Shown: positions 5,681 to 64,000, counted from the stretch's first letter. The stretch is 64,000 bases of DNA from Amoebophrya sp. A120 (GCA_905178155.1 CAJINV010000001.1:7741123-7805122), one strand, 5' to 3'. Notes: generated from the sequence alone by a model not told the origin. A program made the numbers and translations.

Positions 5681-5965
5681 CACAGACACAAATCTGTGTT
5701 GCGCGGGCGCCAATCTGTGTTGCGCGCGCCACAAATCTGTGCTGCGCACAGCTCGCCGCAGACACAAATCTCCGCTGCGCGCAGCACAAATCTGTGTCGC
5801 GTGCAAATCTGTGCTGCGTGTTGCGCACAAATCTGTGTTGCGCGCAGCTCGCCGGAGACACAAATCTGCGTTGCGTGGACGCAAATCTGTGTCGCGCGCA
5901 GCGCAAATCAGTGCTGCGCGCAGCTCGCCGCAGACACAAAGCTGCGTTGCGTGGACGCAATCGGA
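5681..5965. repeat. Minisatellite of ~20-30-bp units, core CACAAATCTGTG(T/C)TGCGCG
   Basis: About 11 imperfect copies, interspersed with CAGCTCGCCG(C/G)AGA spacers, inside the 2.2-kb element. Confidence 0.9.
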
Positions 5966-6214: not shown

Positions 6215-7225
6215 AGGTCGGCAGGCGTGGCCACCGGGTGGCGCGCGCCGACCCCTGCCAAGGCAGGTGGGCGGGCAGGGTCGGCAGGCGTGGCCAAAAG
6301 GCAACGCACGCTCGCCCCACCCCCTCCCCCCCCCGCTGGCTTGGCAGGTGGGTTGGTAGGTCGGTAGGCGTGGCCAATAGCCAACACACGCTCGCCCCCC
6401 CCCCACTTGGCAGGTGGGTGGGTAGGAAGGTCGGTAGGCGTAGCCAATAGGCAACGCACGCGCACCCCGCCCCCCCCCCCCACCGGGCAGGTGGGTGGGT
6501 AGGTCGGTAGGCGTGGCCAATAGGCCGCGCACACTCGCCCCACCCCCCCACCTGCCTCCCTGGTGGGTCGGTGGGTTGGTAGGTCGCTCGACAGGCGTGG
6601 CCAATAGGCAGCGCACGCTCGCCCCACCCACCCACCAGACAGGTGGGTGGGTAGGTCGGTAGGCGTGGCCAAGAGGCAACGCACGCTCACCGCCCCCGCC
6701 CACCAGCGAGGTGGGTGGGTAGGTCGGTAGGCGTGGCCAATAGGCAACGCACGCTCGCCCCACCCGCCCACCAGGCTGATGGGTGGGTAGGTCGGTAGGC
6801 GTGGCCAAGGGGCAGCGCACGCTCGCCCCACCCACCCGCCAGCGAGGTGGGTGGGTAGGTCGGTGGGCGTGGCCAATAGGCAGCGCACGCTCGCCGCACC
6901 CACCCACCAGGCTGGTGGGTGGGTAGGTCGGTAGGCGTGGCCAATAGGCAGCGCACGCTCCCTCGCCCCACCCACCCACCCATCAGGCTGGTGGGTTGGT
7001 AGGTCGGTAGGCGTGGCCAAGGGGCAGCGCACGCTCGCCCCACCCACCCACCAGCGAGGTGGGTGGGTAGGTCGGTAGGTGTGGCCAATAGGCAGCGCAC
7101 GCTTGCTCGCCCCACCCACCCACCAGGCTGGTGGGTGGGTAGGTCGGTAGGCGTGGCCAATAGGCAGCGCACGCTCCCTCGCCCCACCCACCCACCAGGT
7201 GGTGGGTAGGTCGGTAGGCGTGACC
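6215..7225. repeat. G/C-run-rich minisatellite of ~60-bp units
   Basis: About 16 copies of GGTGGGTGGGTAGGTCGGTAGGCGTGGCCAATAGGCAGCGCACGCTCGCCCCACCCACCC with variants, inside the 2.2-kb element. Confidence 0.92.
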
Positions 7226-7714
7226 AGTAGGCAGCTGTCTCTGGGTGGAAAGGGATAGGTAGGTAGGTGGGTCGGTGCGATCACGGTACTACAATGAATC
7301 GAAAAGGCGCCACGGTACTACAAAGGCGCCAGGTAGGTGGGTAGGTAGGCAGCTTCAACAGTAATAGTAGACGAATCTCAGAAAAACACAAAACACAATG
7401 CAGCGGGTTCGGTCAAATGTCGTCTGTCCAAAACCAACCAACCAACCGACCAACCCACCGGAATTTAGGCCCGCAGGCCCACGCCTATTGAATAAACGGT
7501 ACTACCCAAGTTCTCAAATCAGGAACCTGTTCTTTCGCAACCCTCAACTTCATCTGTGCGTACAGCAGTTTTGATGCCCAGTTTTCCTTTGCCCTCGAAC
7601 ATGCACTTTGAAGAGGAAAAAAAAGCTTCGCCACTTTTGCAGAAGACGATTTCTTCTTTCTCGCTGCAGTCACGGTACGTTGTACTTAACCTTTTTGCAA
7701 GAAGTGCACTGTGT

Positions 7715-39358: not shown

Positions 39359-43791
<4,433 letters not shown>

Positions 43792-44746
43792 TGATGGAAA
43801 ACGGCAGAAGAAGGGGAAGTTTTGTTGCTATTATTATCATCGTTATCTTCCTCCTGCTCGTATTTTCCGTGGCGTCTTGTGCGTTCGAATTCTTGTCTGG
43901 AAGTGGTGCTTTTCTCTGCTGCCACGAAGGAAGTGAAAACGAAGGAAATGTCCTCGTTCAAAGTTAAGATTTTTGCCGGCTCGTTTTCGTGGTCAGCACG
44001 AAAGAAGTCGGCAGAGCGCGCTCTTGCGCATGAAGTGATACTAGCACAGGTTCTCGTACCACCACGACGCGCCAGAAGTATTCACGTTTTTTTCTCTTGT
44101 CTTCCACTAGAAATCGTTCATCATACAAGGGAATGGCTACTTCTATATTAGGCTACTTCATTTCGACGCTCTTGATTGATTCAAAGCCACTTGAAGAACT
44201 TTTGTTCTTCTTCCACATCATCATGTGCCAGGACTTCTTCGTATTCCGTACTCGTACTACGCGAATTCTAGGCGCGAATCGCCTCCTCTTAGAACTAAAT
44301 GGAACATATTGAATCAGTCACCAGCCTCACTTATTTTATGGCCCACGAGGAGATAACATAGGATTAGGAATAACACACGAAGCTGGAAGCACCTTTTTTC
44401 ACTAGCAACGGGCAACTTTTTCACTAACACACACCTTTTGAAACTTTGCTTTGTCACACACATCGAGTCTTACGTTCGCACACAAGAGACGAGAAGATAA
44501 CAAAACTGTTTGACACTTTCAACATACCGGTTTGCGCTTTCTCTCACCTCCAAGCACCATTTGAATTATTCACGCACACACCACGTTGTCTGGGGGTTAA
44601 GACAGAACAACTACGACAGCTTTATGGAGACGGAGACCACAGATGTTAGTGTTACACATAGGAAAACAACAAGACCGTCCGTTGACAGCATTGACTTTAT
44701 CTACGATAGGCTGGTCGGCTTTTCTAGTCGAAAGGAAACGCCTGAA

Positions 44747-49147: not shown

Positions 49148-49770
49148 TTTCTGTATCGGATGGTAGTAAATGTCGGCATCATCTAATTTAAATTTATCAG
49201 TACATCAGCGAGTCATTCCCCCGTCGGCACAATGTGTAGGACAACATGTGCGATTTTTGTTTGAAAATAGCGCTCCGGCCGGGCCTCGCATCTTCTCAGC
49301 AACCAAGCAATGGAACCGCCAAAAAAATGCTTTCTTCTTTTTCCGCGAAACCGAATCACGAGAACTGGGATCAACGAACTTCGAATCACGAGAACAACCG
49401 GCTGGGAACGCACAAACAAATCACGTATGGACAAAACGACCTGAGTCTCATCAGAAGCTGTTCACGACACGTACCGAAGTTCCGCAAGACGCGAGGAATG
49501 TCTAACGTTTGACTTGGAAGGATCTGATCTCCAGCTTTGAAGACACAGCGATCTTCATCATCATCATCATTTCGTTTCGCAGTAGTGTGGATCGATCATG
49601 TGAACAGTGAGGAAAAGCGTTGGCACACGAGTTGAAATGGACTTTTCGCCTGTAACTCTGTGGATATAATTTTTGCTTTCAAAAGTAAAATTGCATCGAA
49701 ATCGCGTCGGTCATCGTCAGGCATTTTTCGATCATTCGTGTGAAGTTTCTGCAAACAGACCTCTCACATT

Positions 49771-51337
49771 TTAGCGCCCTTTGTCGCGTTGTCGCACTTT
49801 CCGCTGGTTTCTGGTGCGGACACCCAGACCCTTTCGCAGTCGTTTCCGTGGTGCTTCCAACTTCGGGTTCAGCTTGAGTTCGCGCTCCGGGAAGGCAACT
49901 GTGATGGAGTTGTTTGTGAGGCAATGAAGTGTGCGCACGAAATCTTGTTTATAGAAGGATCTTCTTCGTGCCAGCAACAGCGGGTGAAAGTGAAATTGCA
50001 AATCTATCAAAAATCCGGAAAAAATCAAGAATACCTTCTTCCACAGGCAGATCTTTGTCCTTCAGCTGCTTGACGATGGTCATGAGAGTTTGCCGCTTGT
50101 GCGCAATGAGTTCCTCGTCCGTGGCGATCGAAAAGAATTCCTCTGCGACCGGCTTTCGCATGTGCTCCGGTAATTTCGCAGAGAACACCTCTTTCACGAC
50201 GGTCTTCAAGAAAGAGTCCGAAAATGACGGATCCGCGAGAATCTGCATCCAGGGTTCCAGCAAATGCATCGTCGTCTCTTCCTCGTTGATAGGTGTTTGG
50301 GTTGATGCCTTTTCGGACTGTTCCTCAGCTCTATTTTCCTTGTTTTGTTCCCTCTTCTTCCTCTCCGCAGCGAACGTCTGAGTCAGTTCGTCCCAGAAGC
50401 AAGCGGCGACCTGCTGTGCGAAGCCCGGGTTGAAAGTGCTTTCGAGGCAAAGGGGGGCGAAGGAGAGCATGGAGGAGTTGCATTCTTCCACAAGGTCTTC
50501 GTCGAAGTTGTGGGAAGCGAGGACAGCGAACATCTCCGCAAGCTGGATGCGAACCTGTGGAAATGAAAAATGCGTTGCAGATAGGATAGGAGTCAGTAAT
50601 CGAGGTAAGAAAAAGGTAGAGAGTTTCGAGTTCGATTTGAGTTTGAAGTAAGTACTCAAAGAAAACTTTGAAAAAAAAAACACTCTTACCATCAGCAAAA
50701 ACTTGTTCATTCGCCAGGTATCCAGTTTTGGCCACTCGGTTTGAAAGACTTCGAAGAAGGACGCGAACCAGAGCGGGAGCTTTTCCGTCGCGATGCTCCT
50801 GGTCAGCTGCGCAATGTGCACGGACAGCGCCTGCTGCACCGGTTTCTTGTCGCTCATCCAAAGGCAGTAAAACAGCGCCCGCCAGAGCTTGACGAAGTCC
50901 AATTCCGTCAATTTCTCCCCCTTCTTCTTCAACCACTTTTGTAAACTTTTGAAGCCCTTGTCCCGCACGGATTTTTCGCAGTGAGACAGTTTCGTCGCGA
51001 ACGCGGTGTGGTTGGTGCTGGCTTCTTCTATTTCTTTTTCCGCCTCTGCGTCGTCTGCCTGCTGCTGTGCCAGATTTTCTTCGTCAGCATCTTCCTGGTC
51101 GTTTTCCTCTGAGTTTTCAAACACATCGGCTTCCCTTCTCTTCTCCCGGTTGACAATTTCGGGTAGTCGCTTTTGGATCAATTTATGGATCTTCTCCTTT
51201 TGCGGTCGGTTTTGTTTCGCCAAAACCCTTTTTCCACCCTTTCGGTTCGGCCCGGACTTTTTTCCACCAGTCCTCTTCTGGGCGGCCTTCTTCTGGGCCC
51301 GCTTGCTGTTCTGCTTCTTCTTCGCGTTCTTCGGCAT
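49771..51337 (-). CDS. RRP1: Ribosomal RNA processing protein RRP1/Nop52
   Basis: FATKLSHCEKSVRDKG, FVKLWRALFYCLWMSDKKPVQQAL, EWPKLDTWRMNKFLLMVR. In-frame GT-AG intron ~50556-50690. Last exon in frame of ORF 49771..50028. Confidence 0.9.
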
Positions 51338-52256
51338 TTTGAGGAAGTCTAGGAAGAAGAATAAGATGAAAGAAACAAAAATCTAAGTTTCTCTGATGGA
51401 CTTGAAAGAAAAGGCAGCTCCTTCAGTCGCTACACTTTCTCATCTATATTCCAATCCACATTGATGATCAGACTCGATTTACGAAAAATTATCTAGAAGG
51501 GTACGGTTACTTAAACCTCCTGAATGAGTAGAACTCACAAGAAAATCAGTTCGTTTGTAACACAAGCAGCTTCTAAGTAGGTTCGAGGCTTTCGTTACGT
51601 GATACAGATTCGGGATTGCCAGATCAGCGTGTCAATTTTGTCTGATCAACCATTTTGATCCTTTTGTGACCCTTTTTGTGGATCTTTTGGCCTTGTGGTA
51701 CTGGAACTGAAGTAGAAATCACATCCTTTGAGCCTAGGCGAATCTCAACTTTATCGCGGAAGGAAATTGATCTGTTACAACAATGCAGGTGTCGGATCAC
51801 AAACAAGAATTAGTGGACACTTGTCCGTTTTGTAAGATCAAGACCATCGCGATGTCTCGGCTCGATTCTATTACGCAGCATTGCTGGTAACACATGGGCC
51901 GGCTTGCATGAACGAGCCCAGGCACAGGCACTAAAGACAAAGAACAAGATACTTACTTGCTTTTTGGGAAAGTCACTATCCCATCGAGATCTATACAATC
52001 ACGTGCACAGGCAAAGAAATGTGAAAAGGGACGGTGGTAGAAAAGATTGAACAGAACCGGAGAAACTCGATCAGGGGCTCTTTCAAGAACCCGTAGCTCT
52101 AAGTGGCAGACCTATTCGAAAACCTTCCGACGTCCTCTTTTATGTTTTCCACTTCCACAGCGTCTGGGTACATTAGGAAATAATCGTCCCATTCTGAATC
52201 AGTATATCCCACAACATCCCCGCACCTCTCGTATTCTGGTCCTCGCTCTGGACGCC

Positions 52257-54789
52257 CTATCTGTCGACGCTCGATTTTTTGACTTCCTGTCGCTCGGGCG
52301 ATTTCGTCCTTGACCTCTCTCTGCTGTGGGAGCTGTGTCCTGTTAAGCCCGTTGAACCAGCACCTGCGTCGCGCATAATCCGATCCGCTCCTGAAGTCTG
52401 CACGTCGATCTGTCTGCCCAAATTCAACAGTTCGACCTCCATGGGACGCAATTCTTCCAGTAACCAATCTTTGAGTCGCAATGTTTTTCCTGCATTAAAT
52501 TTACCCCTTGCAATTGCTGCTTTGGCTTTGTCATGTGCATCCTTTAACGATTTGCCCGAAGATTTGAGGTCGGCTAGAAGACTCGTGTCAGTTCCGGCCT
52601 TTGATGGAGCAGCCTGTGCTGATTCGTGTTCCTGATTCCCGCCCTGAGCCTTTTGCACCGTACTGGTAAACTTTTGAAAAACGCCCTGCAACGCAGAAAC
52701 GGAATCTCGCGCAGGGTTCAACGCTTTTTCCAAGCACTCTTGCTTCCGTCGCTCTAGTCCTGCTAGCTGGTGGTGAGTTGCCGTTTGCTGGAGTGCTTTC
52801 TTCGTCTGCTCCTGTGGTGCAGTGGTCTTGCTCAGTGGCCCTGCTCCGCTTGGTGCATGCGGTCCTGCTTTTTGTTCACCTTGGGGTTTGTCTTTCTGCG
52901 TGGTCTCGTCTTTCGTGTTCGAATGAGCGAAAGACGCGGGTATTCTGTGCTCCTGGTTTTTGCGCCGTAATAAAACTGACAACACTGGACGTGCATCTTG
53001 CGACGGCTGCTTCTCCTCAATGGACGGCGGAGGATCCGATTTGACTTTCTTTATCGCTTGCATATCGGGAAGGTCGAAAGCAACGCCCCGACTACGCTTC
53101 AAGGATTTTCCCTGAGAGGCCTGCGCCTGTTCCTCCTCGCTGCCCCTCTTTTCCTGTTTCTCGCCAAACCCGAACACTTCAGTGAAGTTGTAGCTGTGCT
53201 CGTCCACGCACAAGGTTACCTTGGTTGCGTTGATTTTCCATTTCGGGATACTTACGCGAGTCGTGTTCATTCCGTGGCCCTTACTCGGTGCATATTACTG
53301 CGGAAACACAATGTACAGACACACAAACCATAGAGGCGAGATCGAGAAAACGGAAAAATGCGTCACGGTCACAAATTAAAATTTAGTTTGTAACCGTGAC
53401 GTACATATATATTAACTATACCCAGCCCCGAAAAGCGCGGACGGTAAAAATCGTGTGCTTCCGGAATGTGACAAAAATCCGCGTGATGAGGCCTGATTCG
53501 TGCGCAACTTTCTTCGCCGGTCCAATTTGCTCCACTACATCACCGCTGGATAAGAACGCCGTCACCCTAGAGCCTGTCTCGCACGATTCTTGCACCGAAG
53601 CGCCTGAGCTTCGCAGTAATTGCCATTTTCTCTGTCCAACGGCGCCGTCTCCAATTGATTGGGCTTCGCAAGCCTTCGACGCGGTTACATTCGATGCGCT
53701 GGATTTGGTGCCCGGCACAGTGGCCGCTTGAACTGTGGCAGGTGCGACTGCAGGAGGAGGTCGCTTCGATGCAGCGTCGAGCCAGTTCTTCTGCGCTGGA
53801 GGCAATGCAGCCGCCTCCTGCACTTTTGTATTTGTTGGCCTGGCGCAGGCGCCCCCCATTGCAATGGAGCGCAAAGCCTCTACGGCAGCCAGCTGAGCTG
53901 ATTCTCTGCCGGCGCGGCTGTGCAACCGCAAAGGGTCCTCGCTTGACACTGCTGCAGCGCCCGGAGTGGTCGCTTTCCCGACTTCAAGCCTTGGCCGAGT
54001 GTATCTCTCGAACAGAATAGCCCCGCAACGACATGCGTCCTCCTTTGTAAGAGCCACAATTTGCGCCGCAAGTTCACCTACACGTGAACCGCCCGTGTCG
54101 GTTTTCGCAGCCGGGGACGCACAGAAGAGGTCGCCGGGAAATGGTTCGTGCAGGCGCAGCGCTGCGAGGTTGTGCGTTTTAAGTAAGTCAGCCTTTGCTG
54201 TGTGGACAACACCGTAGTCATCAGGATGCAGCGGGACGGACCGCTCAACGATCCCCATGCCGAAGCGGTCCTCCAGCTCGCGCTTGTGATTTTTGGGCGC
54301 TAGTGTGATCCAGTTTCCCATGCATAGATTGGAAAACTTAAACGCAAACTCCTCTTGCACTCGTCGAGGGTTTACTAGCTCGTAAGCCTGCACACGTGTC
54401 GTTGGTTTCGCAACCATGTATGCGTAAGCGCGACGGTTAGAAAGCGCGTAAAATACAGAGTCTGTGTCTGCAGCAGGACTGAAACGCGCTGATGGGTGCC
54501 GAGCTACTTCCAGGATGTTGCCTTGCAAAATAGATTCAGGATCTTCATTTGGACGGCGTCGGAATTCAGCAATCAAATCGGTGACCGAGCCGTAACCATG
54601 CTGAAAGTCCTTACTGATGTTGTCCTGCGTAAACCGGAGCTGACTCGTGCTCAACTCGATTTTTTTCCAATCGTCTTTGTTGTCATTCCAATTGTACTTG
54701 TGGTCGTCAGAATTGGTTCCACCTCTGACATGAGAAAATCCTCTTTTGTAAGAGAAGCCCCTTGCGTGCGCAGAGTTTCGATCCGCCAT
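52257..54789 (-). CDS. ParB/Srx-like domain family paralog 1 (ParB-like + KH-like + SH3-like + helical C-terminal domain; two exons)
   Basis: LRFTQDNIS...FYALSNRRAYAY. Exon 1 ends RGW|GTATAG and joins ...CCAAG|VTLCVDE in ORF 52257..53270, whose NAGKTLRLKDWLLEELRP matches NATKTTTWRDWILEELKP in paralog 3. Confidence 0.75.
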
Positions 54790-55376
54790 GATGTGGCTTT
54801 TTCGTCGTGTCACACCTGGTTTCCAAGCTTCGAGCTCAAGATTAGATGGCTCACTCCGTTACAATCAAGAAACTACAAACTCTGTGTTGCACATAGGTGC
54901 TCTCAATTTCGCATCAACAGCTGATGGGTCTCGGGTAAATCTAAAAAACCTGAAGTCGGATATTAAGCTAAGCGTAGCGATAGATCGATAAAGCTTCCCT
55001 AGGAAGCGAGTGATTGCGATATTCGAAAATCTAGTAAAAAAGAACGCACTTTGACGCTCTAGCGAACATAGAACCAGCAGGAACAACTGCATGAAGCCTT
55101 TCCAGAAGTTCTGTTTTTTCAAACATAGTCGTCGGGCCCACTCGGCTCTGCTCACCAGATGCTACACGTAGGTAGCAGGCTGCATGATCTTTGATGCGAA
55201 GAGAGCTCGAACTGATCCTGTAACAAAGCTGTGTCGACGTCCACGCGGAATGATTGTTTGTATGTATAAAAACCACGCGAATCCGTTTCGCGCTTCGCCC
55301 CATGGAAACGTCCAGAAAAGAGCCAGCGAAAATTGCAAGAACATTCACAGACAGAGTTGCTTCATCTCTCATCAAA

Positions 55377-58300
55377 TCACATCTCACGCAGCTTCTTAAT
55401 CCCCTCATCAAGAGCCGAGATTATCTGAGACGTTCGCACCGCTTGCGCCTGGAACTCCTGGTCGAACGTCAAAAAATCTGCTTTGAGCTGCTCGAAGCTT
55501 TCCTCTGCCGTGTCCTTCCCGCATGTCAAAAACGCCACCGCGGTGCTCATTTCGCGATGAAGGTCGTGAAGACGGTCCGAAATGCCTTGAATATCTGCCA
55601 TAAGGGTCGAGGTGCGAGATATCCGCATCTGTGCGTCGTTTCGCGAAGCCGGCCCCTCGAGTCGGCGCGCTGCGCGCTCTGCCACATCAAGCAAATCGGT
55701 GAAGCCGCCACAGTTCTCGCGGTACTCGTCTACACAGCTGCGCGCATTGTCAAACTCGGCCTTGGTGGAGATACTTTCTGCTTCGGTGGTAAGCTGCTGT
55801 TCTGCCGGGAGACTTTTCGCAGCAGCATGGTCTTCGCCCAACGGCGTGATGTCCTCTGATGGTGTCGCGTTGGAAGTAGCCGAAGGGAAGGCTCGCGGCG
55901 TTTCCAAATCTTCAATCGATGCGGCTGCAGGGCGACCGGGCCGGTATTCGCCACCTCCCACGCACTGCCCAAACTTGATTCCATCCGATTCGGGCGATGA
56001 CGACCGCGCCCGACTTTTATTGATGGCTCTCGCTTTTTTCTCTTTTTTCCGATTCCGGTGCCTGCGTTTTTCCTTTTTCTTCTTTTTCGCTCGCGGTGTT
56101 CGACGTCGCTGTGGCGAACTCGATGATGATGAGACTCTTGAACGACTGTAGTGACGTCGTATTACAATGAAAAATGCACCCATCCCGATTAGCAGAAGCT
56201 TCTCATGAGAATTTTCCGATTCCAAGTGAAAGCTTTATGTCTTGCATGAAAGGACTATATGAGTCTTTCTGGCGCAAAAGGTATCTTTTGCATGACAGAC
56301 CCGCCTGCTGTTGGGCTTCTTTGCAACACATATTTGAGCTATTCAGCATGGAAATCTGTGATGTTGCTGATACATATTTATATGCAAGACGGGGAGCGTT
56401 TCTATTGGAAAGGTTTGCAATACGAATCCTGCCAAGTCCTGGGGCGGGAGCATTTTTCACTGTAATACGTCGCTGTCTACTTGCGTTGCTCCTGCGCCGC
56501 CGTTTTTCTCCTCTTCGCCCCGATCGTGACTCGACACCCCGAACACGGCGCCCGTAATAATCTTCGTCCGAAGAGATCGGGACGCTCGCACGAACGCGCG
56601 AGAGACTTCTGCTGGAGCTCGAGGGCGCGCTGTTTCGTCGTGCAGGCTTCCTTGCTTGCGCGGAGCGTCTCCTTCGTCTGCTCGTGCTTCTACCTCGTGT
56701 CGGACTCTCCGCCCCTTTCTCTCCACCGGGTACTTCAACAAAGTACTTCGGGCCGCCGGCATTTTCGGCAGACAGTGTCACCTTGATATTTATAAAGTGC
56801 TTGGAGTGCCAAGATGATTATAGTGCATTTGTCAACAAGAGTCGAGCCTCTGCGCAAGAAGAACTATCGCGCACACAGCGCGCAAGGCCTCAAAACCGGA
56901 ACTGGTTTCATGCACTGCATACGGTACCTGGAGGCACTATTGCTTCTTGCTGCGTAACTGACAAGCACCTCTGAGCTATGTATTGACCACAAAGAAAACG
57001 GGGCATGATAAGCAAGTATGGGAACTATACCCAGCCTAGCGTGTGCGGCAGAAGAGGTTCGCCCCGCTTCCCGCTCTTTCCCTCCGACAATGGGCCTGGC
57101 TCCATTTCTTTGCTTGCCTGCCGTATGTCTCGGACCAAGTGCAGACACCTGTAAAAAATTAGAAGCATCCACTGTCGCTTGCTAGTGAGCCCCATCATTA
57201 TAAAATGCTCTTGCATGAATAAACAGACTGTGTACGTTTCTGCATGCGAGTGCTACACTGGCTAGAACAACAGAAAGACAAACAACAGCGCCCCATAAAG
57301 AGTGTCTACCAGTCCAGAATGGTTTTGGCGCTCCTCTCTCCCACAATCCTTGCAAACCTCCGCACAAGCGCATCGCCGATCTTGCCGCCCTCGGCGACGC
57401 GTGCATCTTCGTTTTGTTCGCGGTTCTTCAAAAATGTTTTCACCTCCACCAGTTTTCGCGTTGCTGGGACGTGTTCCTTTTCTAGCTCCTCCCATAAGAT
57501 CTCCGCTTCCGCGGCGGCTAGCTCGCCAAAAACTGTCCACGTCGGCGGTTTTGCGGTGCTACTTCCACAGCCTACAGGCAGTCGGTTTGCTGGCAAGCGA
57601 ATGGGCATGCGTTTGACGAAGCCGTCGCAGCCGGACTCGAACTCGCCGAACTCGAACTCGACAGGACCCATTTGCTCGACGGTTTGCCCTTCGGCGAGCA
57701 CTCCTAACTGCTTAGAGGACAGGCACTTGCTCGAACGCATCACCACCCCGGTCCGCGCTACTTTCCAATTTTTTTTTGGAAGCGCATTCCGAGGTACGTA
57801 TTGCTGCGCGCTTGTCGAAGTGGTCCGCTGCGGTGGACGCATCCCGTGAAGCCCCGGCGCGATGTACGGAAACGGGAGAACTCTATCACATGAGGTCGGT
57901 GATGTTCGGCGGCTGTTGCCCACCTGGTGTGATGCTGTAGTGAGGCTGAGCCTTCGCCGCTTTGTGCCTGCTTCAGTCCCTGAACACGATGCGTCGATGT
58001 CCTCACCAAGAAAACCGTTTCTACCATGTGAGCCAGTCGCGCGGGTCGACGAAAAAAGCGAAGCCGCCACACCAGTCGTGCTGTGTTCCGGTTCGGCGGA
58101 CAAAGCCGCGACGGTCGCGAGGGTCAGAGGCTGCACTCCCCCGACATGCTCCGGACGCAGGGCGTCTACGAGCGCCGCGGCCCGAGACGGGCCGGCTTCC
58201 ATTCGGCGCCGCGAATACGCCTCGTAGAGCAAACTGCCGCAAGCGCTTACCTCCTGCTCAGTGCGGCCGACTATGTGCGCCACAAGGTCTCCCACCTGTC

Positions 58301-59528
58301 CGCCCGGCAACTCCTGCGAGTGCTTAGCAGCGGGCCCCGGCAGCGTCGGTCTTTGCACGCAAAAAGTGTCAAAATTTTTCCCCGGGAGGTGCTGCGTCAG
58401 ACTGAAATCAACGAGATGATATCGCTTTACCAGGTCGCCAATTTTATCGCTCACCGCCGGGCCGTCGTACGGGTGCAACGGCACAAATCTCTCGTAGACG
58501 CTCGTATTTCCAAACCGCTGCTGCAGGTTGGTCTTGTGGCCCTTGTCCGTCAGGGTTATGAACAGCCCATCACTCATATCCCGTGTAAAAACGTCTCCAC
58601 CCCATCACCAAATGCAAAAATGTGTAGGTCTGGGAGATTGCGACATTTGTCATGCACATGCTATTCTGGCATGACTCCGAAGTTGGTATTGCGTGGCCGC
58701 GAAGAGCCCCTCTTGCTGGTCATGGAAAAACGCAGTTTCTCATGCGAAGTACGCAACGAACTCAGAAGCGTGTCATGCTTGGAAGCGCATTACAGTTTTC
58801 TCACTACTCCCTTCCTTGCATCACAGGTTTCCAGACCCAGACATGTTTGCCATGCTGCATGCTGTATATGCAAATTTGGACGCTGAGAATGTTTCTCATG
58901 CGGAGCCTCATGTTGATAGTGGTGCCCTGAGCTTTGTTATGCTCAAATCAGAATGATAAGCTGGATCTGTAACGCTGCTGCACTAGCTAAACACGACGAT
59001 ACTACGACGAGCCCAAATTACTCATGTGCAACAGCCAAAGCTTCTTCATTTGTCTTGCAGATTTCCCAACTTGACTACGGGGCGGGGACGTTTTTCCTCG
59101 CAATAACTCACGCTGGAAAAGCGGAACTGAAATTCGTGCTGCAGCTTGTGCTCGTCCACCAGCTCCTTCGCGTTGACCTCCTCCCCGGGCCGGGCCACGA
59201 TGTAGGCCAGGGCGCGCCTATTTGTGAGCGCATAGTAGACGGGTTCGGATCCGGGTGCCGCAGATGGGTGCCGTGCCACTTCCAGAATGTTGCCCTTCAA
59301 AACCGTGTCCGGATCCTTCGGGCTCGCGCTCTTCAGCTTGTCGATCAGGTTTTGAATTGGGCCGAATTTTTTGTCCGTAAAATCCCGACTGATGGTCTGC
59401 TGCGTGAAGCGAATCTGGCTGGTATTCAGTTTAATGCGCCTGTACGCGGGCGCCGCTTTCGGCTCCGGGGCGGACATTCCACCCTTATTCTTGCGCCCCC
59501 CGGACTCCCAAACCCAGCCACTATACAT
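55377..59528 (-). CDS. ParB/Srx-like domain family paralog 2 (ParB-like + KH-like + split SH3-like + RS-rich + helical tail; about five exons)
   Basis: IRFTQQTIS...YYALTNRRALAY. ORFs 59046..59528, 57306..58577, 57025..57216, 56203..56781 and 55377..56225 join via two TIR elements and two GT-AG introns, one with the same GGCTGG|GTATAGTT donor as paralog 1. Confidence 0.72.
56160..56467. mobile_element. Introner-like TIR element, class B (308 bp, TSD CGTCG)
   Basis: Left TATTACAATGAAAAATGCACCCATCCC vs right reverse complement TATTACAGTGAAAAATGCTCCCGCCCC. CGTCG at 56155-56159 and 56468-56472. Excision gives ASRQRR|HYSRSR. Confidence 0.9.
58577..59105. mobile_element. Introner-like TIR element, class B, carrying a nested class A copy (529 bp total, TSD ACTCA)
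   Basis: Left TATCCCGTGTAAAAACGTCTCCACCCC vs right reverse complement TATTGCGAGGAAAAACGTCCCCGCCCC. ACTCA at 58572-58576 and 59106-59110. Excision gives FRFSSVS|DGLFITLT. Confidence 0.9.
58606..58858. mobile_element. Decayed class A element nested inside the class B element
   Basis: CACCAAATGCAAAAATGTGTAGGTCTGGGA...TTCCAGACCCAGACATGTTTGCCATGCTGC, ~253 bp. Interior resembles the 1195/28306/35866 group. Terminal TAT/ATA and TSD are degraded. Confidence 0.8.
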
Positions 59529-60113
59529 TTTTATTTCTTACATTAGTCAGCGAAGAAAAAAGTAACAAGAAGAGACAACTGAGACAAAGAGCAGGCCGGT
59601 GAGCGTATGTCGCAGCTTGATGCTCTTGTTGCGGAACAATAAACTAAAGCTCTGCACAGCACTAGAGCAAATACATATAAGACCAAGATCTTCTTTACTT
59701 ATTATGGAGTCACCGGCACAGATGCGTATGCTTTCCAAAGACCCCGCAAGACAGGCAGAGGAAGCCTCTCGTCGCCCAAGTTTATGTCCGATTTTGGGCG
59801 AAGTAAAAGCGAGGGCGCTACTACTTACAATCAGGATCAAGGTCGAGCCGTTGTGCGCGATGAGGATCCTTAAGGACTCTTATTGTCGCGGACCTTTTCT
59901 TGCACAGCCTGAGTCTTCATTTGAGAACGTCATGCTGTTTTTGACGCAGCAAAATGCGCCGTGTGCCGTTGCTTGATCCAAGAATTCATTGCGGGAATCA
60001 TAAGAGGAAGAAACGAAAGCGCTTGTCGGAATCATGGGTATGCACTAGGGATCAAAGTTCTGCACGTCGCGTCCTACAGTTAACCAAATAGGAATAGATC
60101 AGTTTCCACCTCG

Positions 60114-62030
60114 TCAGTGAGTAACGAACCTTCGAATGCGACCCAGTCGCCTTTCTTGCATTTCAAACTCTCGACTGACCTCCGCACAATGTCGCTCGAT
60201 CGGTTTCAGTTCCTCGAGAATCCAGTCGCGCCATGTCGTTGTTTTCGTGGCGTTTAGCTGCAATTTCCGCACGGCTTCCTTTGCCGCGCTGTGTAAATCT
60301 TTGCCTTTATCCACGGCGGCCTGAAGGTCCGCGATCCAGCTTGCTGTTGCCGCTGCGCCCGCAGCCCTTTTGTCTTCCTCGCTGCGAAGTCTGGTTGCGA
60401 TGGCTGATGATTGCTGCTGCAGTTTTGCGAGGCACATACTCGCAGTCGCGCGGCTTTTCTCCAAAACAAGCTTTCTCCGCGCTTGCATCCGCATAGCGTC
60501 GTCGTCAGGACTTCTGCTGCGCCGCGAGCTTGCGCCAGGGGTTTCCTCCATAGTCGCTTCCGGTTGCGCTTTGCCGCGGCCCTGATCCGAAACCTCCAGC
60601 CCTGTCGCGATGAAGGGATATGGCATGATCGGGCCCCGTGATGAGGATGATTCTTCATCTTCGGAAACAAGATCCCGGCTGCTACAGCTTGCGTCATCCT
60701 GTGGCCACTCCTTCTGCGCGCTGTCATCTCTTTCGACCAATTCCACTCGCCTTCGCTTTGTACCAGCTTCGGCGACCGACGGTCTTCTGGTAGATGCGCG
60801 ACGTAGATCCGCTCGCGCAGTTAGAAAGACAGCGCCAGTTGGGTTGGTTGACGGCGGCGCGTGAGATATTGTAGACGTTCGTGACCTGCTTCTGCAGCGA
60901 GACCTTCTGCGCGACCTTCGTCGATCCCCCACTCCCATTTGCGAATGTCTGTCCTCTGCCACTTCTCGTTCCGTTGTCAAAGCGCCCGGCACTGGCTGTG
61001 CGGCGTCACGAGCAAGGCCTTCGTTGCTTCTGCTGTTCCGAAAACTGTCAGTCAGCATTTGCATATGTTCAGCTACCTCCTCGGGGGTCGCGAAAGGTGA
61101 GACTAGCGGCAGAGCTGTGTCAGCATGATCGCCGCCTTCTTCATACGTGCCCCTACCGCCACCCCGGGTGCTTTCTACTTGTTCTATGTTTTGCTTAAGC
61201 TCCAGCTCCACTCGTGGTCGTGTGTAGGTGTCATACAATAGCCCGCCGCAAGCTGTTGCCTCCTGCTCCGTTCTCGCTACGACGTGCGCTATAACATCTC
61301 CCACGCGACACCCTGTCGATGCCTCCTTACCGGCAGCTGCTGCTGCGTGCGTAGAATTGTACTCCCGGACGCGAAAAAGATTTGGGTTCTTTCCGGGGAG
61401 ATATTCGCGCAAACTCAAGTCCGCCAAATGGTACGTTTTGACCATGTCCTGAACTTCCTCGCGGACGTCTGCCAGGTCATCAGGATGCAAGGGGATGTGG
61501 CGCTCGTAGATGGAATCGCCGAATCGCGTCTGCAGCTTCTTCTTGTGCCCCCTCGACGTTAGTGTGAGAAAAAGCCCGTCGCTCAGGCTCGAAAACTTGT
61601 GCTTGAAATGGTACTGGATCGCGTGGCGGTCGACCAACTCGAAAGCCCGTACAGTTTTGTTTGGTCGGGCGATGAGGTAAGCGTACCCACGACGGTTGCT
61701 GATTGCGTAGTAAGTCGGCTCTCGGCCCGGCTCGCGGGGACGGGACGGATGCTGAGCCACCACCAGAATATTTTCGCCCAAGATGTGGCCGGGGTCGTGC
61801 GGACAGTCCATCAGTCGCGCGATCAGATTCTCCACGGGCCCCCAATTATCCTGGAAGTCTCTGCTGATGTTGTCCTGCGTAAACCGGAGCTGTCTTGTGT
61901 TCAACTGAATTAACGTGTACGACTGCGATCCGTCCCCGCCCTTTTTCCCAGCGCCTTTGCTGCGACGAGCTGCACGCGCTCGGTTTGACATCTTGCGTTT
62001 CTCTTTTATGTATGTGGGAATGAAGGACAC
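60114..62030 (-). CDS. ParB/Srx-like domain family paralog 3 (intronless; ParB-like + KH-like + RS-rich linker + helical C-terminal domain)
   Basis: 638-aa ORF with LRFTQDNISRDF, YYAISNRRGYAY, ERHIPLHPDD and VVARTEQEATACGGLL. Confidence 0.82.
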   Translation of the reverse strand: MSFIPTYIKEKRKMSNRARAARRSKGAGKKGGDGSQSYTLIQLNTRQLRFTQDNISRDFQDNWGPVENLIARLMDCPHDPGHILGENILVVAQHPSRPREPGREPTYYAISNRRGYAYLIARPNKTVRAFELVDRHAIQYHFKHKFSSLSDGLFLTLTSRGHKKKLQTRFGDSIYERHIPLHPDDLADVREEVQDMVKTYHLADLSLREYLPGKNPNLFRVREYNSTHAAAAAGKEASTGCRVGDVIAHVVARTEQEATACGGLLYDTYTRPRVELELKQNIEQVESTRGGGRGTYEEGGDHADTALPLVSPFATPEEVAEHMQMLTDSFRNSRSNEGLARDAAQPVPGALTTEREVAEDRHSQMGVGDRRRSRRRSRCRSRSRTSTISHAPPSTNPTGAVFLTARADLRRASTRRPSVAEAGTKRRRVELVERDDSAQKEWPQDDASCSSRDLVSEDEESSSSRGPIMPYPFIATGLEVSDQGRGKAQPEATMEETPGASSRRSRSPDDDAMRMQARRKLVLEKSRATASMCLAKLQQQSSAIATRLRSEEDKRAAGAAATASWIADLQAAVDKGKDLHSAAKEAVRKLQLNATKTTTWRDWILEELKPIERHCAEVSREFEMQERRLGRIRRFVTH

Positions 62031-62404
62031 GATAGGAATAAAGAACTTTTAAGTAAGTAGTAATGATGCACTCACAGCAATTCGAGAATGAGACACATGA
62101 AGTAGAGAAGAAAGGCACTCGCCGTAAGACCGAAGTTGTCTGCACTCCTCAAACAAACTTTCACTTCACTCAAAGCCAATCGCAACACGAACTCACTCGA
62201 CAGACAATATACAGTCTCTCTTTTCCCTGAGTTAGACTCTCGGAAAAAAAAAGTGCGAAATTTTCTTTCCGCCCAGATGCGCGAACACAGGACAATCTCT
62301 TTCCTGTGAACTAAATTGAAAAGGTTTTACCTCCACCATTTTGTCGTCCCGTCATGCGAAAGAGCCGTAATCAAATTTCTGCTGTTCCACATTTGCACTA
62401 GTCG

Positions 62405-64000
62405 CTATCTGTTCACTGAATGAACCATGATGATGCTCAGCCTGTTGCCAAGCGACTGCGCTGGAGACCTCTCTCCACTGTCGTGTTCAGTAAACTGTGC
62501 CAAGCCCCTGCTGCCATCGGGGGCCCAGGGTGGCGCGTTCGCGTTTAGGACTTGAGCGCTACTGCTTGCGGTTTCAGCTCCTCCAACAGCGGAGCTTATT
62601 ATATCGTGGCCATCTACTTCCGTCGTGTTGTAGTAGCCATTAGTTTCGACGTGCGAAGGAATGGATTGGTAGGAATAGGATTCGTCAAAAACTCCTGCTG
62701 CCGACGAGCTCCTCTCGTTGGGAACGCCGTAGTTATCTTGCTCCGCAGCAGATGCGAAGAATTGTGCCCCGACAACTACCTCACTATGTTCGCCCCCGCT
62801 CTGATCATGTTGTTCGAAATTGTTGCCGTGGGGGTCATTTGCCCCTACTGCTAGAGTGAGGCTGCTGCCTTCGATCTCTGGCGTGCTGCTGTTGCAGCTC
62901 CATTCTGCGTGCGCGACACCGTAGTCGTAAGCAGGTTCTTCGTTGCCATACCCAGCAGCAACCTCAAAACCGAGGCTCTCCTCATCCACGGTGGAGCTTG
63001 TCCCTGTGCCGTGCGTGGTACTGTCGTCGCAGGAACTATTGTTCAACGGAAAAAACACAGAGGTCGCAAACGGGTTCGGGCGCCAATCCGACTTCTTCTC
63101 AAGATCGGACGCACAGTTACCCGTCTGCACGTCTTCCGGCAGCTGGAACCCAAACGCCTCCCGCGGCCGTTGGTCGTCGTCCATCTCGCTTGAAAATGCG
63201 GTATGTAGTCTTACTGGCGTCTGCGTCAGCAACTGTCTCTCCAACTCCCGAGCGCGAATCTTGTTTGGAGTGGAAGTTCCAGACACCAGAGACTGCGGGG
63301 CAGAGACAAACACTTGCGAAATGGCCAGCCGCGGCGTCGTGTATTTGTCAAAGAGGTAAGACGCACATACACTCACCTCTTGGTCCGTCCGCCCTACGAC
63401 TTGCACTATCATATCGCCAACCCGCGCTGACTTTTCGGCTCGTCTGCCACTTGACGAACCTGCGCTCTCCTCCTCCTCGTTTATGCTGTTCGTGCAAAAC
63501 ACTTGGTTGTTGGGATAGGGATCGCGGATATTCAACTCGGACAAGTGATATTTCTTCAACAGAGCTGCGCGTTCCGCCCGCACTTCCCCGTAGTCCCTGG
63601 GGTGCAGCGGTACGTTGCGCTCAAATACGGTGTCCCCCTTGCCCTGCAGGCGTTCCTGGAGGTTCTGCTTGTGGCCGCGCGGGGTGATAGTTACATACCG
63701 CCCGTCCGTTATGTTCGAGAACCGCTGCGCAAAGTGCGTCTGCAGCTTCCGCGTGTCGGTCAGCTTCCTGGCCTTCACGATTTTGTTCGGTCTCGCGACC
63801 ATGTAGGCGTACGCGCGGCGGTTGGATATCGCGTAGTACACCTTTTCGTCCTCACTCTGCCTCCCCTCACGGTCATTGGGGTGCTCGGCGACTTGGAGGA
63901 TGTTGCTCTTCAAAATGCACTCCGGGTCCTCGTCGCTGCATGCGAGTAGCTCGGTGATCAGGTTTTGCACTGTGTTCTCCACTGTGCCGTGCCGGGCGTG
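62405..64000 (-). CDS. ParB/Srx-like domain family paralog 4 (5' end beyond window; acidic low-complexity tail)
   Basis: ILKSNILQVAEHP, YYAISNRRAYAY, ERNVPLHPRDY, VVGRTDQEVSVCASYL. Frame is open to the window edge. Confidence 0.8.
   Translation of the reverse strand, partial: HARHGTVENTVQNLITELLACSDEDPECILKSNILQVAEHPNDREGRQSEDEKVYYAISNRRAYAYMVARPNKIVKARKLTDTRKLQTHFAQRFSNITDGRYVTITPRGHKQNLQERLQGKGDTVFERNVPLHPRDYGEVRAERAALLKKYHLSELNIRDPYPNNQVFCTNSINEEEESAGSSSGRRAEKSARVGDMIVQVVGRTDQEVSVCASYLFDKYTTPRLAISQVFVSAPQSLVSGTSTPNKIRARELERQLLTQTPVRLHTAFSSEMDDDQRPREAFGFQLPEDVQTGNCASDLEKKSDWRPNPFATSVFFPLNNSSCDDSTTHGTGTSSTVDEESLGFEVAAGYGNEEPAYDYGVAHAEWSCNSSTPEIEGSSLTLAVGANDPHGNNFEQHDQSGGEHSEVVVGAQFFASAAEQDNYGVPNERSSSAAGVFDESYSYQSIPSHVETNGYYNTTEVDGHDIISSAVGGAETASSSAQVLNANAPPWAPDGSRGLAQFTEHDSGERSPAQSLGNRLSIIMVHSVNR

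Follow-up and report, generated by a model that had tools for sequence, protein, structure and literature searches.

The G1–G4 array and its transcripts

The 64-kb window of the Amoebophrya sp. A120 genome analyzed here (the whole stretch of DNA under study) carries on its minus strand, from position 52257 to 64000, an array of four co-oriented paralogous genes that we term G1 to G4. Their products share a core of approximately 230 amino acids (aa), in which a predicted ParB-like domain of the toxin-associated Tox-ParBL1 type is followed by a predicted KH fold, and the cores are continued by dissimilar tails. In a BLASTP comparison of the four proteins all six core pairs align, with identities of 37–47% for matches confined to the core and E values of 1e-47 to 3e-74; the likeness is therefore not due to chance, and the four-gene array with a common core recorded in the initial annotation of this sequence is upheld. 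The motifs NRR and ER..PLHP occur in all four genes, and RF[TS]Q..I lies inside the window in three of them, the G4 copy being located past the window end and present in the complete G4 protein (P0004). The spacers measure 413–919 nucleotides (nt). Co-orientation of neighboring genes is normal for A120, where 98.5% of genes are reported to lie in such blocks (PMC7789003). The features of the array, with domain assignments as predicted, are as follows.

52257–54789, minus strand: G1 gene, 776 aa, with exon 1 at 53422–54789 and exon 2 at 52257–53219; ParBL1, KH-like and SH3b-like parts and a helical tail
53220–53421, minus strand: GT-AG intron of G1, its joint present in RNA-type contigs
54292–54666, minus strand: Tox-ParBL1-type ParB-fold domain of G1, aa 42–166, with RFTQ, SNRR and KFSN..G
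53980–54255, minus strand: type I KH-fold domain of G1 without GxxG, aa 179–270; alpha1 and alpha2 form one helix (aa 189–205) in the model
53178–53634, minus strand: possible SH3b-like segment of G1, aa ~386–470, weakly based, crossed by the intron at GW|VT and with a counterpart in G2
52362–52799, minus strand: C-terminal helical region of G1, aa 597–742, homologous to the G3 C-terminus
55377–59528, minus strand: G2 gene, 964 aa, with five exons at 59106–59528, 57310–58571, 57031–57148, 56468–56781 and 55377–56154; ParBL1, KH-like, interrupted SH3b-like and arginine/serine (RS)/basic parts and a helical tail
58200–58508, minus strand: KH-fold domain of G2, GxxG absent at the alpha1–alpha2 position
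58572–59105, minus strand: intron 1 of G2, a non-canonical A120-type introner that splits the ParBL1 domain
56155–56467, minus strand: intron 4 of G2, a non-canonical introner assigned from an RNA-type contig joint and repeats
60114–61991, minus strand: G3 gene, 625 aa (P0001), a single exon supported by its open reading frame (ORF) and transcript contigs
61551–61919, 61206–61514, about 60852–60956 and about 60129–60503, minus strand: ParBL1, KH-like, RS and helical-tail parts of G3
62405–64000, minus strand: G4 gene, last 531 of 594 aa (P0004), its start and RFTQ motif past the window end
63668–64000, 63320–63628 and 62408–63310, minus strand: ParBL1 (part), KH-like and acidic low-complexity tail parts of G4

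The spliced G1 model matches the 776-aa NCBI A120 protein CAD7925477 (P0002) exactly. The spliced G2 model has 947 aa from its second ATG and is otherwise identical to the 964-aa CAD7925479 (P0003), which starts 17 codons upstream. G1 corresponds to gene GSA120T00002778001 and G2 to the gene whose identifier ends in 2777001. Joints of the single G1 intron and of all four G2 introns are found in spliced form in contigs from two RNA-type runs of one sample, and intron-less contigs extend over G3 (59992–62035) and G4 (62315 to past the window end). The RNA label of these runs is a guess, and the call of transcription rests on the spliced joints together with low depth over the spacers; by this evidence all four genes are transcribed. 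A DNA-type run spans 49500–58715 and 59071–64000 unspliced at a flat depth of 42–46, and the array is therefore not a collapsed repeat. The G4 contig has a depth of 26–36 in run X2 versus 2–8 for G1–G3 and is not raised in X1, X3 and X4; depth being a poor measure of expression, this is a hint at most.

Introns 1 and 4 of G2 start with TAT-N7-AAA, carry inverted and direct repeats (a terminal inverted repeat and a 5-nt direct repeat in intron 1, and a 32-nt inverted repeat, 84% complementary, with a 6-nt direct repeat in intron 4), and reach a high copy number in the DNA run. Both fit published A120 introner families; they are passengers in G2 and are no evidence on its function.

The Tox-ParBL1-type domain and its KH-fold partner

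Tox-ParBL1 was defined by a predicted ParB fold, an N-terminal [ST] and an [NT][RT][RT] motif, and the available text of that study names several eukaryote groups, dinoflagellates not among them (Zhang et al. 2012, PMC3482391). In all four array proteins RFTQ supplies the conserved N-terminal Ser/Thr, and [ST]Q, NRR and [KR]F[ST] are intact in every copy; across the 13 full rows of our family alignment, Q, F, N, R, R, and G never vary. A family profile searched against 5.8 billion sequences gave one hit among 5909 candidates, to the C-terminal end of a bacterial RHS protein of 4557 aa (E 1.7e-7), and profile-profile comparison (hhalign) of the array core with toxin tip plus non-array relatives gave 98.3% and E 2.6e-14. 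A hidden Markov model (HMM) built from three bacterial tips alone gave G1–G4 8.6–15.3 bits, scores reached by none of 200 shuffles of each protein (maximum 5.2) and, taken alone, below significance in a large database. The seven non-array relatives score 20–47 bits with the same HMM, so the array is the more diverged branch. Sequence comparison through these intermediates makes the link between array and toxin tips a firm one.

A genome scan confirmed five loci of 16 pattern matches. In three of the five, the domain ends a long ORF that is directly followed by an ORF of 99–126 aa, the RHS assignment there resting on Pfam for P0019 (whose own contig is L002) and on inspection by eye for the other two, and an immunity role for the small ORFs on their position. 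L005 and L006 are partial matches and were omitted from the HMM and the tree. The small ORFs after the tips at L002:2852–3178 (an acidobacterium) and L004:2769–3065 (Streptomyces) look alike by eye and are likely to form a common immunity family.

Structure prediction and comparison give a concordant picture. An AlphaFold model built with 18 alignment rows has a predicted local distance difference test (pLDDT) of mostly 80–96 over the core, and ParB entries top both Foldseek searches of the PDB made with two models (E 5e-3 and 2e-2, probability 0.87–0.99). The VIA comparison aligned sulfiredoxin (Srx; Z 6.6, root-mean-square deviation [rmsd] 4.6, 99 residues aligned) and Atu1540 (Z 6.5, rmsd 3.4, 98 aligned), and Atlas structure matches at template-modeling (TM) scores of 0.62–0.68 comprise RHS, HINT and ParB_N clusters together with mollusc, cnidarian and diatom clusters. 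A BFVD structure search likewise placed ParB-like rows on top, none of them reaching E 0.001. Each of these lines for a ParB/Srx fold is modest alone, and the lines agree. Scans of Pfam, NCBIfam, PHROGs and PADLOC placed no curated family on the core, PF02195, PF17762 and TIGR00180 had no match in the Pfam and NCBIfam scans of the array proteins, and PDB sequence searches gave nothing real; pentatricopeptide repeat (PPR) hits in the latter were rejected as artefacts of summed repeats.

By motif, predicted fold and kinship, the first domain is best assigned to Tox-ParBL1, in agreement with the toxin-type ParB/Srx-like domain proposed in the initial annotation. The array resembles the published group in its ParB fold, N-terminal [ST] and [NT]RR, and in its sequence relatives at RHS/HINT C-terminal tips, and eukaryotic members had already been reported (PMC3482391). 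Unlike those tips, the array domain is N-terminal, probably intracellular, and fused to a KH domain lacking GxxG and to long tails, with no trafficking domain; dinoflagellates, moreover, are outside the taxon list in the available text. Canonical ParB CTPases (Spo0J/Noc), which come first in Foldseek, share the fold and an Arg-containing phosphate motif, whereas the array has a KH fold in place of the helix-turn-helix (HTH) and [ST]NRR in place of GxxR. In array members the KH loop is also longer and an additional loop containing HP is present, and the Cys found three residues after NRR in all seven non-array eukaryotic relatives is Ala in all four array members.

Comparison with named domains indicates that the second domain is a type I KH fold (beta-alpha-alpha-beta-beta-alpha) with alpha1 and alpha2 merged. 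VIA matched it to the N4BP1 KH at Z 9.4 (rmsd 2.7, 69 aligned), named KH domains make up most of the top rows, and the better model gave Z 8.8 and 8.7 (MEX-3C at Z 8.8, rmsd 5.4, 85 aligned). ParB matches first in Foldseek and KH matches at Z 8.7–9.4 are what had been expected of a structure search on the core; the Atlas search gave no usable match for the KH part. A GxxG between alpha1 and alpha2 is absent from all 12 rows examined, with G..G elsewhere in two of them, and the AlphaFold model has one continuous helix where the alpha1–alpha2 loop is expected. The same fused helix is reported for KH1 of KHNYN, whose di-KH module bound none of the RNAs tested (PMC11997328), and KH folds with an altered motif are described in a review as not binding RNA (PMC12787238). 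Given the absent GxxG and these precedents, the array KH is more likely to be a protein-docking or regulatory module than a canonical RNA-binding domain, and its reading as a hint of RNA binding is not supported. What the array has in common with N4BP1 and KHNYN is the attachment of an effector domain to a KH fold that has lost GxxG and whose alpha1 and alpha2 are fused. Those proteins pair a vertebrate-type di-KH with an NYN/PIN RNase; in the array a single KH follows a ParB-like domain, the identity is 4%, and the likeness is analogy rather than kinship.

Range, age and tails of the family

A profile search of 1,835,955,588 representative sequences returned 11 hits: the four array proteins, three from strain A25 (two of them partial neighbors), one further A120 protein from the same scaffold, one from Yihiella yeosuensis, and two environmental sequences. 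A second profile round gave five hits among 7993 candidates, three of them new (Gymnodinium smaydae and two environmental clusters). The ParBL1–KH fusion is present in the Yihiella and G. smaydae transcriptomes; both organisms are predators, so a prey origin of these transcripts is possible. Protein searches, the basis for copy number outside the window, place four array copies and one distant copy (P0009) in A120. Metagenome locus scans confirmed 0 of 88 and 1 of 122 pattern matches with two alignments, and viral contig scans confirmed none (0/43, 0/24, 0/31, and 0/47). The cluster of P0011 includes two unrelated 52-aa proteins, one named as a Flp pilin, which are probably clustering artefacts.

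The initial annotation had described an undescribed and rapidly diversifying family, and neither adjective can be kept as it stands. Tox-ParBL1 and its eukaryotic spread were described in 2012 (PMC3482391), and what we did not find in print is the fusion to a KH domain and the dinoflagellate range; our literature searches, outside whose coverage most subscription papers fall, contained no description of a ParBL1–KH fusion. As to diversification, synonymous sites of the core are saturated in all six pairs (proportion of synonymous differences 0.68–0.79), nonsynonymous divergence (dN) is 0.42–0.59, and the ratio to synonymous divergence (dN/dS) is about 0.17–0.34 in the three of six pairs with finite dS. 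Saturation masks selection at individual sites, and by these pairwise estimates the core is under purifying selection. Nor do the paralogues (38–57% identical) differ much from the average A25/A120 orthologue, for which a genome-wide identity of 48–51% is reported (PMC7789003).

Two trees group the array with two A25 fragments in a single clade (support 99/97 and 96/90) whose inner order they leave unresolved. These fragments are adjoining partial models (P0005, CAD7972679; P0006, CAD7972677), one closest to G1 (59%) and the other to G3 (49%), and may represent one split gene or the sign of an array in A25. Since their identity to the A120 copies equals that among the A120 paralogues and approximates the orthologue mean, the duplications appear to date from about the time of the A25/A120 split.

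The tails fit their earlier descriptions, with RS/SR density peaking in G2 and G3 at 10 per 60 aa, versus 2–3 in G1 and G4, and a net charge of -28 in the acidic G4 tail; that they are interchangeable was an interpretation rather than an observation. The C-terminal helical regions of G1 and G3 align with a score of 149 (shuffle maximum 81, reached by 0 of 100 shuffles). The SH3-like segments of G1 and G2 score 63 once the best alignment is masked (reached by 0 of 100 shuffles); without masking, 8 of 100 shuffles reach the best G1/G2 alignment. In both genes an intron interrupts GW|VT at an identical point and begins with the same eight bases. G2 and G3 have two short motifs in common (3 of 300 shuffles), and the G4 tail matches no other array tail, 32–93 of 100 shuffles reaching its scores. 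No repeat between the array genes exceeds 93 nt at 74%. Such pairwise blocks, with the shared intron position, fit a single ancestor (ParBL1–KH–linker–SH3b-like–RS–helical) with copy-specific losses, and the tails look more like products of differential loss than of cassette swapping, although some old exchange may have taken place. Of the SH3-like assignment itself, a two-sequence HMM gave weak matches to 2kyb (E 0.18) and 2kt8 (E 1.0), which we take to be bacterial SH3b domains, and also to intimin (E 0.15); Pfam has no match for the segment in G1 or G2, and in the G1 AlphaFold model it has no fold. In G2 the segment (57031–57530) is split ahead of its GW|VT end by some 130 aa, to which a 118-nt exon contributes. 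G1 and G3 have 29 identical nt over QLRFTQDNIS (54614–54642 and 61864–61892) in a setting of otherwise saturated synonymous sites, possibly a short gene-conversion tract.

Elsewhere in the window, the gene downstream of the array encodes Rrp1/Nop52 (49952–51382, minus strand; Pfam E 8.7e-43; transcript joint 50552–50688), and ORFs at 39652–43827 (minus strand), read by eye, presumably form a polo-like kinase in several exons. GC-rich tandem arrays lie at 6261–7235, 5686–5960 and 1–179, with a 68-bp unit repeated 13.6 times, units of 76–96 bp repeated twice, and a 41-bp unit repeated 4.4 times.

Possible activities of the array proteins

We tentatively favor, at somewhat less than even confidence, a reading of G1–G4 as old, expressed, intracellular NTPases, probably acting on ATP, in which a toxin-type ParBL1 domain is coupled to a KH fold lacking GxxG and the tails select partners or location. 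S/T-N-R-R would be the ParB phosphate-binding motif, its last Arg catalytic, and the enzyme would hydrolyze NTP or transfer phosphate in the manner of ToxB, Srx, and SerK rather than cleave DNA. The KH fold would dock a protein partner or restrain the enzyme in cis, as has been proposed for the KHNYN di-KH; the basic and RS tails of G2 and G3 may direct these copies to the nucleus or to ribonucleoprotein granules, and the copies may have divided locations or partners through different losses from one ancestral tail. We rank NTPase or phosphotransferase activity above the nuclease activity of the initial annotation because the characterized HTH-less ParB-fold proteins Srx, SerK, SbnI, and ToxB are ATP enzymes, and by this analogy the array ParBL1 is probably an NTPase or phosphotransferase rather than a nuclease. 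Srx, SerK, and SbnI bind ATP with a ParB fold (PMC12704722). ToxB, a contact-dependent inhibition (CDI) toxin, is reported as a monomeric ATPase that converts ATP to ADP, requires its motif Arg, and compacts the nucleoid with no detectable DNA damage; it is also toxic in plant cells (bioRxiv 10.64898/2026.05.05.722872).

The array shares with ToxB an HTH-less ParB fold from the polymorphic-toxin pool, and the ToxB G105-N-H-R108 would line up by motif with S/T-N-R-R. In contrast, ToxB as reported is detectable with PF02195, delivered by CdiA, and accompanied by an immunity protein, whereas the array has neither a PF02195 hit nor a delivery domain. With sulfiredoxin, SerK, and SbnI the array shares the HTH-less fold that serves an ATP enzyme in those systems. 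The catalytic Cys motif of sulfiredoxin, FGGCHR, is absent from the array, all four members having [IL][ST]NRR[AG] instead, and Zhang et al. (2012, PMC3482391) treat ParBL1 as a eukaryotic acquisition separate from Srx.

Several observations weigh against the NTPase reading. No assay of a ParBL1 domain was found in the literature, ToxB belonging to a sister Tox-ParB group. None of the Foldseek matches falls below E 0.001 with either model, and the VIA Z scores of 6.5–6.6 for ParB/Srx are under the tool's caution line of 8. Around the motif, the array has drifted from DNRRL to [ST]NRR[AG], and this departure from the family may mean an altered or lost activity. A degenerate DEAD-like domain on P0009, together with the RS tails, hints at RNA work; the domain (aa 558–715 of CAD7925073, A120, same scaffold) has a Pfam E of 0.0026, below the cut-off, and no PDB hit.

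That hint belongs to an unlikely but credible alternative in which the array proteins are RNA-decay or innate-defense nucleases, with ParBL1 cutting RNA, for instance that of mobile elements or viruses, after recruitment by the KH and RS tails, much as in N4BP1 and KHNYN. Among fold matches the N4BP1 KH comes first or close to first, RS-rich tails are present in G2 and G3, and the DEAD-like domain of P0009 would fit as well. Toxin ancestry combined with tandem expansion is commonly seen in genes of biological conflict. However, no PADLOC family matches any of 12 proteins at E<=0.001 (weak evidence, the library being prokaryotic), and the pairwise estimates give no excess of amino-acid change. 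Zhang et al. (2012, PMC3482391) argued that ParB toxin domains could be nucleases, while tracing the nuclease label of ParB itself to mistaken assumptions, and ToxB is reported only to turn ATP into ADP, without DNA damage.

It is quite unlikely that the copies are drifting duplicates or scaffolds, in which the ParB-like domain folds with catalysis lost or changed and most of the proteins' action falls to the tails. The stem to the array clade is long (1.65 changes per site, support 99/97), D has become S/T, L has become A/G, and C has become A around NRR beside an inserted loop, the tails are mostly disordered (pLDDT<50 over aa 310–606 in the AlphaFold model), and Amoebophrya proteins evolve fast in general. 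Against this, the three motifs of the domain have been kept in all four copies despite synonymous saturation, and the ParBL1 domain is better conserved among copies (49–57% identity) than the KH (38–49%).

A toxin-type domain in a parasite also suggests effectors sent into the dinoflagellate host nucleus, where they would make the chromosomes collapse in the way that ToxB compacts the nucleoid of bacteria. The host nucleus is the site of A120 growth, and host chromosomes shrink about 3.5-fold early in infection, the responsible nuclease not having been identified in the text available (PMC9478091); nucleoid compaction and toxicity in plant cells by ToxB, and the basic tails of G2 and G3, which resemble nuclear localization signals, point the same way. 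We consider this improbable. No hydrophobic N-terminus was found in nine of nine proteins, and no signal peptide or membrane helix in the four array proteins; the fusion also occurs in free-living dinoflagellate transcriptomes; and only four copies and a distant one were found in A120, old and conserved in their core. Nor is the array itself a polymorphic toxin system: Pfam and NCBIfam detect neither RHS nor filament domains in its proteins, ParBL1 is N-terminal rather than C-terminal, and no separate immunity-gene transcript is seen in the spacers in contigs, which cannot prove absence. The longest same-strand ATG ORFs in the spacers are 35, 51, 113, and 32 aa, the 113-aa ORF overlapping the G2 3' untranslated region and extending past the transcript contigs. 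A combined version, in which a domesticated, KH-restrained bacterial toxin tip was expanded into ATPase effectors that leave the trophont non-classically and cause the early shrinkage of host dinoflagellate chromosomes, much as ToxB acts on nucleoids, we hold to be highly improbable.

A part in the non-canonical splicing machinery of Amoebophrya, suggested by RS tails, a KH fold matching SF1/Msl5 in structure-match rows, A25 members in the array clade, the missing U1 of A25 and A120, and a published proposal of a novel protein subunit (PMC7789003), deserves very little credence, as GxxG is absent, RS segments occur in only two of four copies, the fusion is found in core dinoflagellates too, and the G2 introners are strain-type insertions of a spread dated after the A25/A120 split (Farhat et al.), whereas the duplications appear to go back to the split itself.

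Taken together with the NTPase reading that we favor, these results provide folds and a testable chemistry for four of the roughly 59% of A120 proteins that lack annotation, and they extend the range of Tox-ParBL1 to dinoflagellates, with a fixed KH partner domain. A 2025 survey of ParB folds relied, according to its available text, on PF02195, which misses the array proteins, and eukaryotic ParBL1 appears to be a branch outside that survey. Should the effector reading prove true, it would account for the degradation of host chromosomes by a major bloom-controlling parasite.

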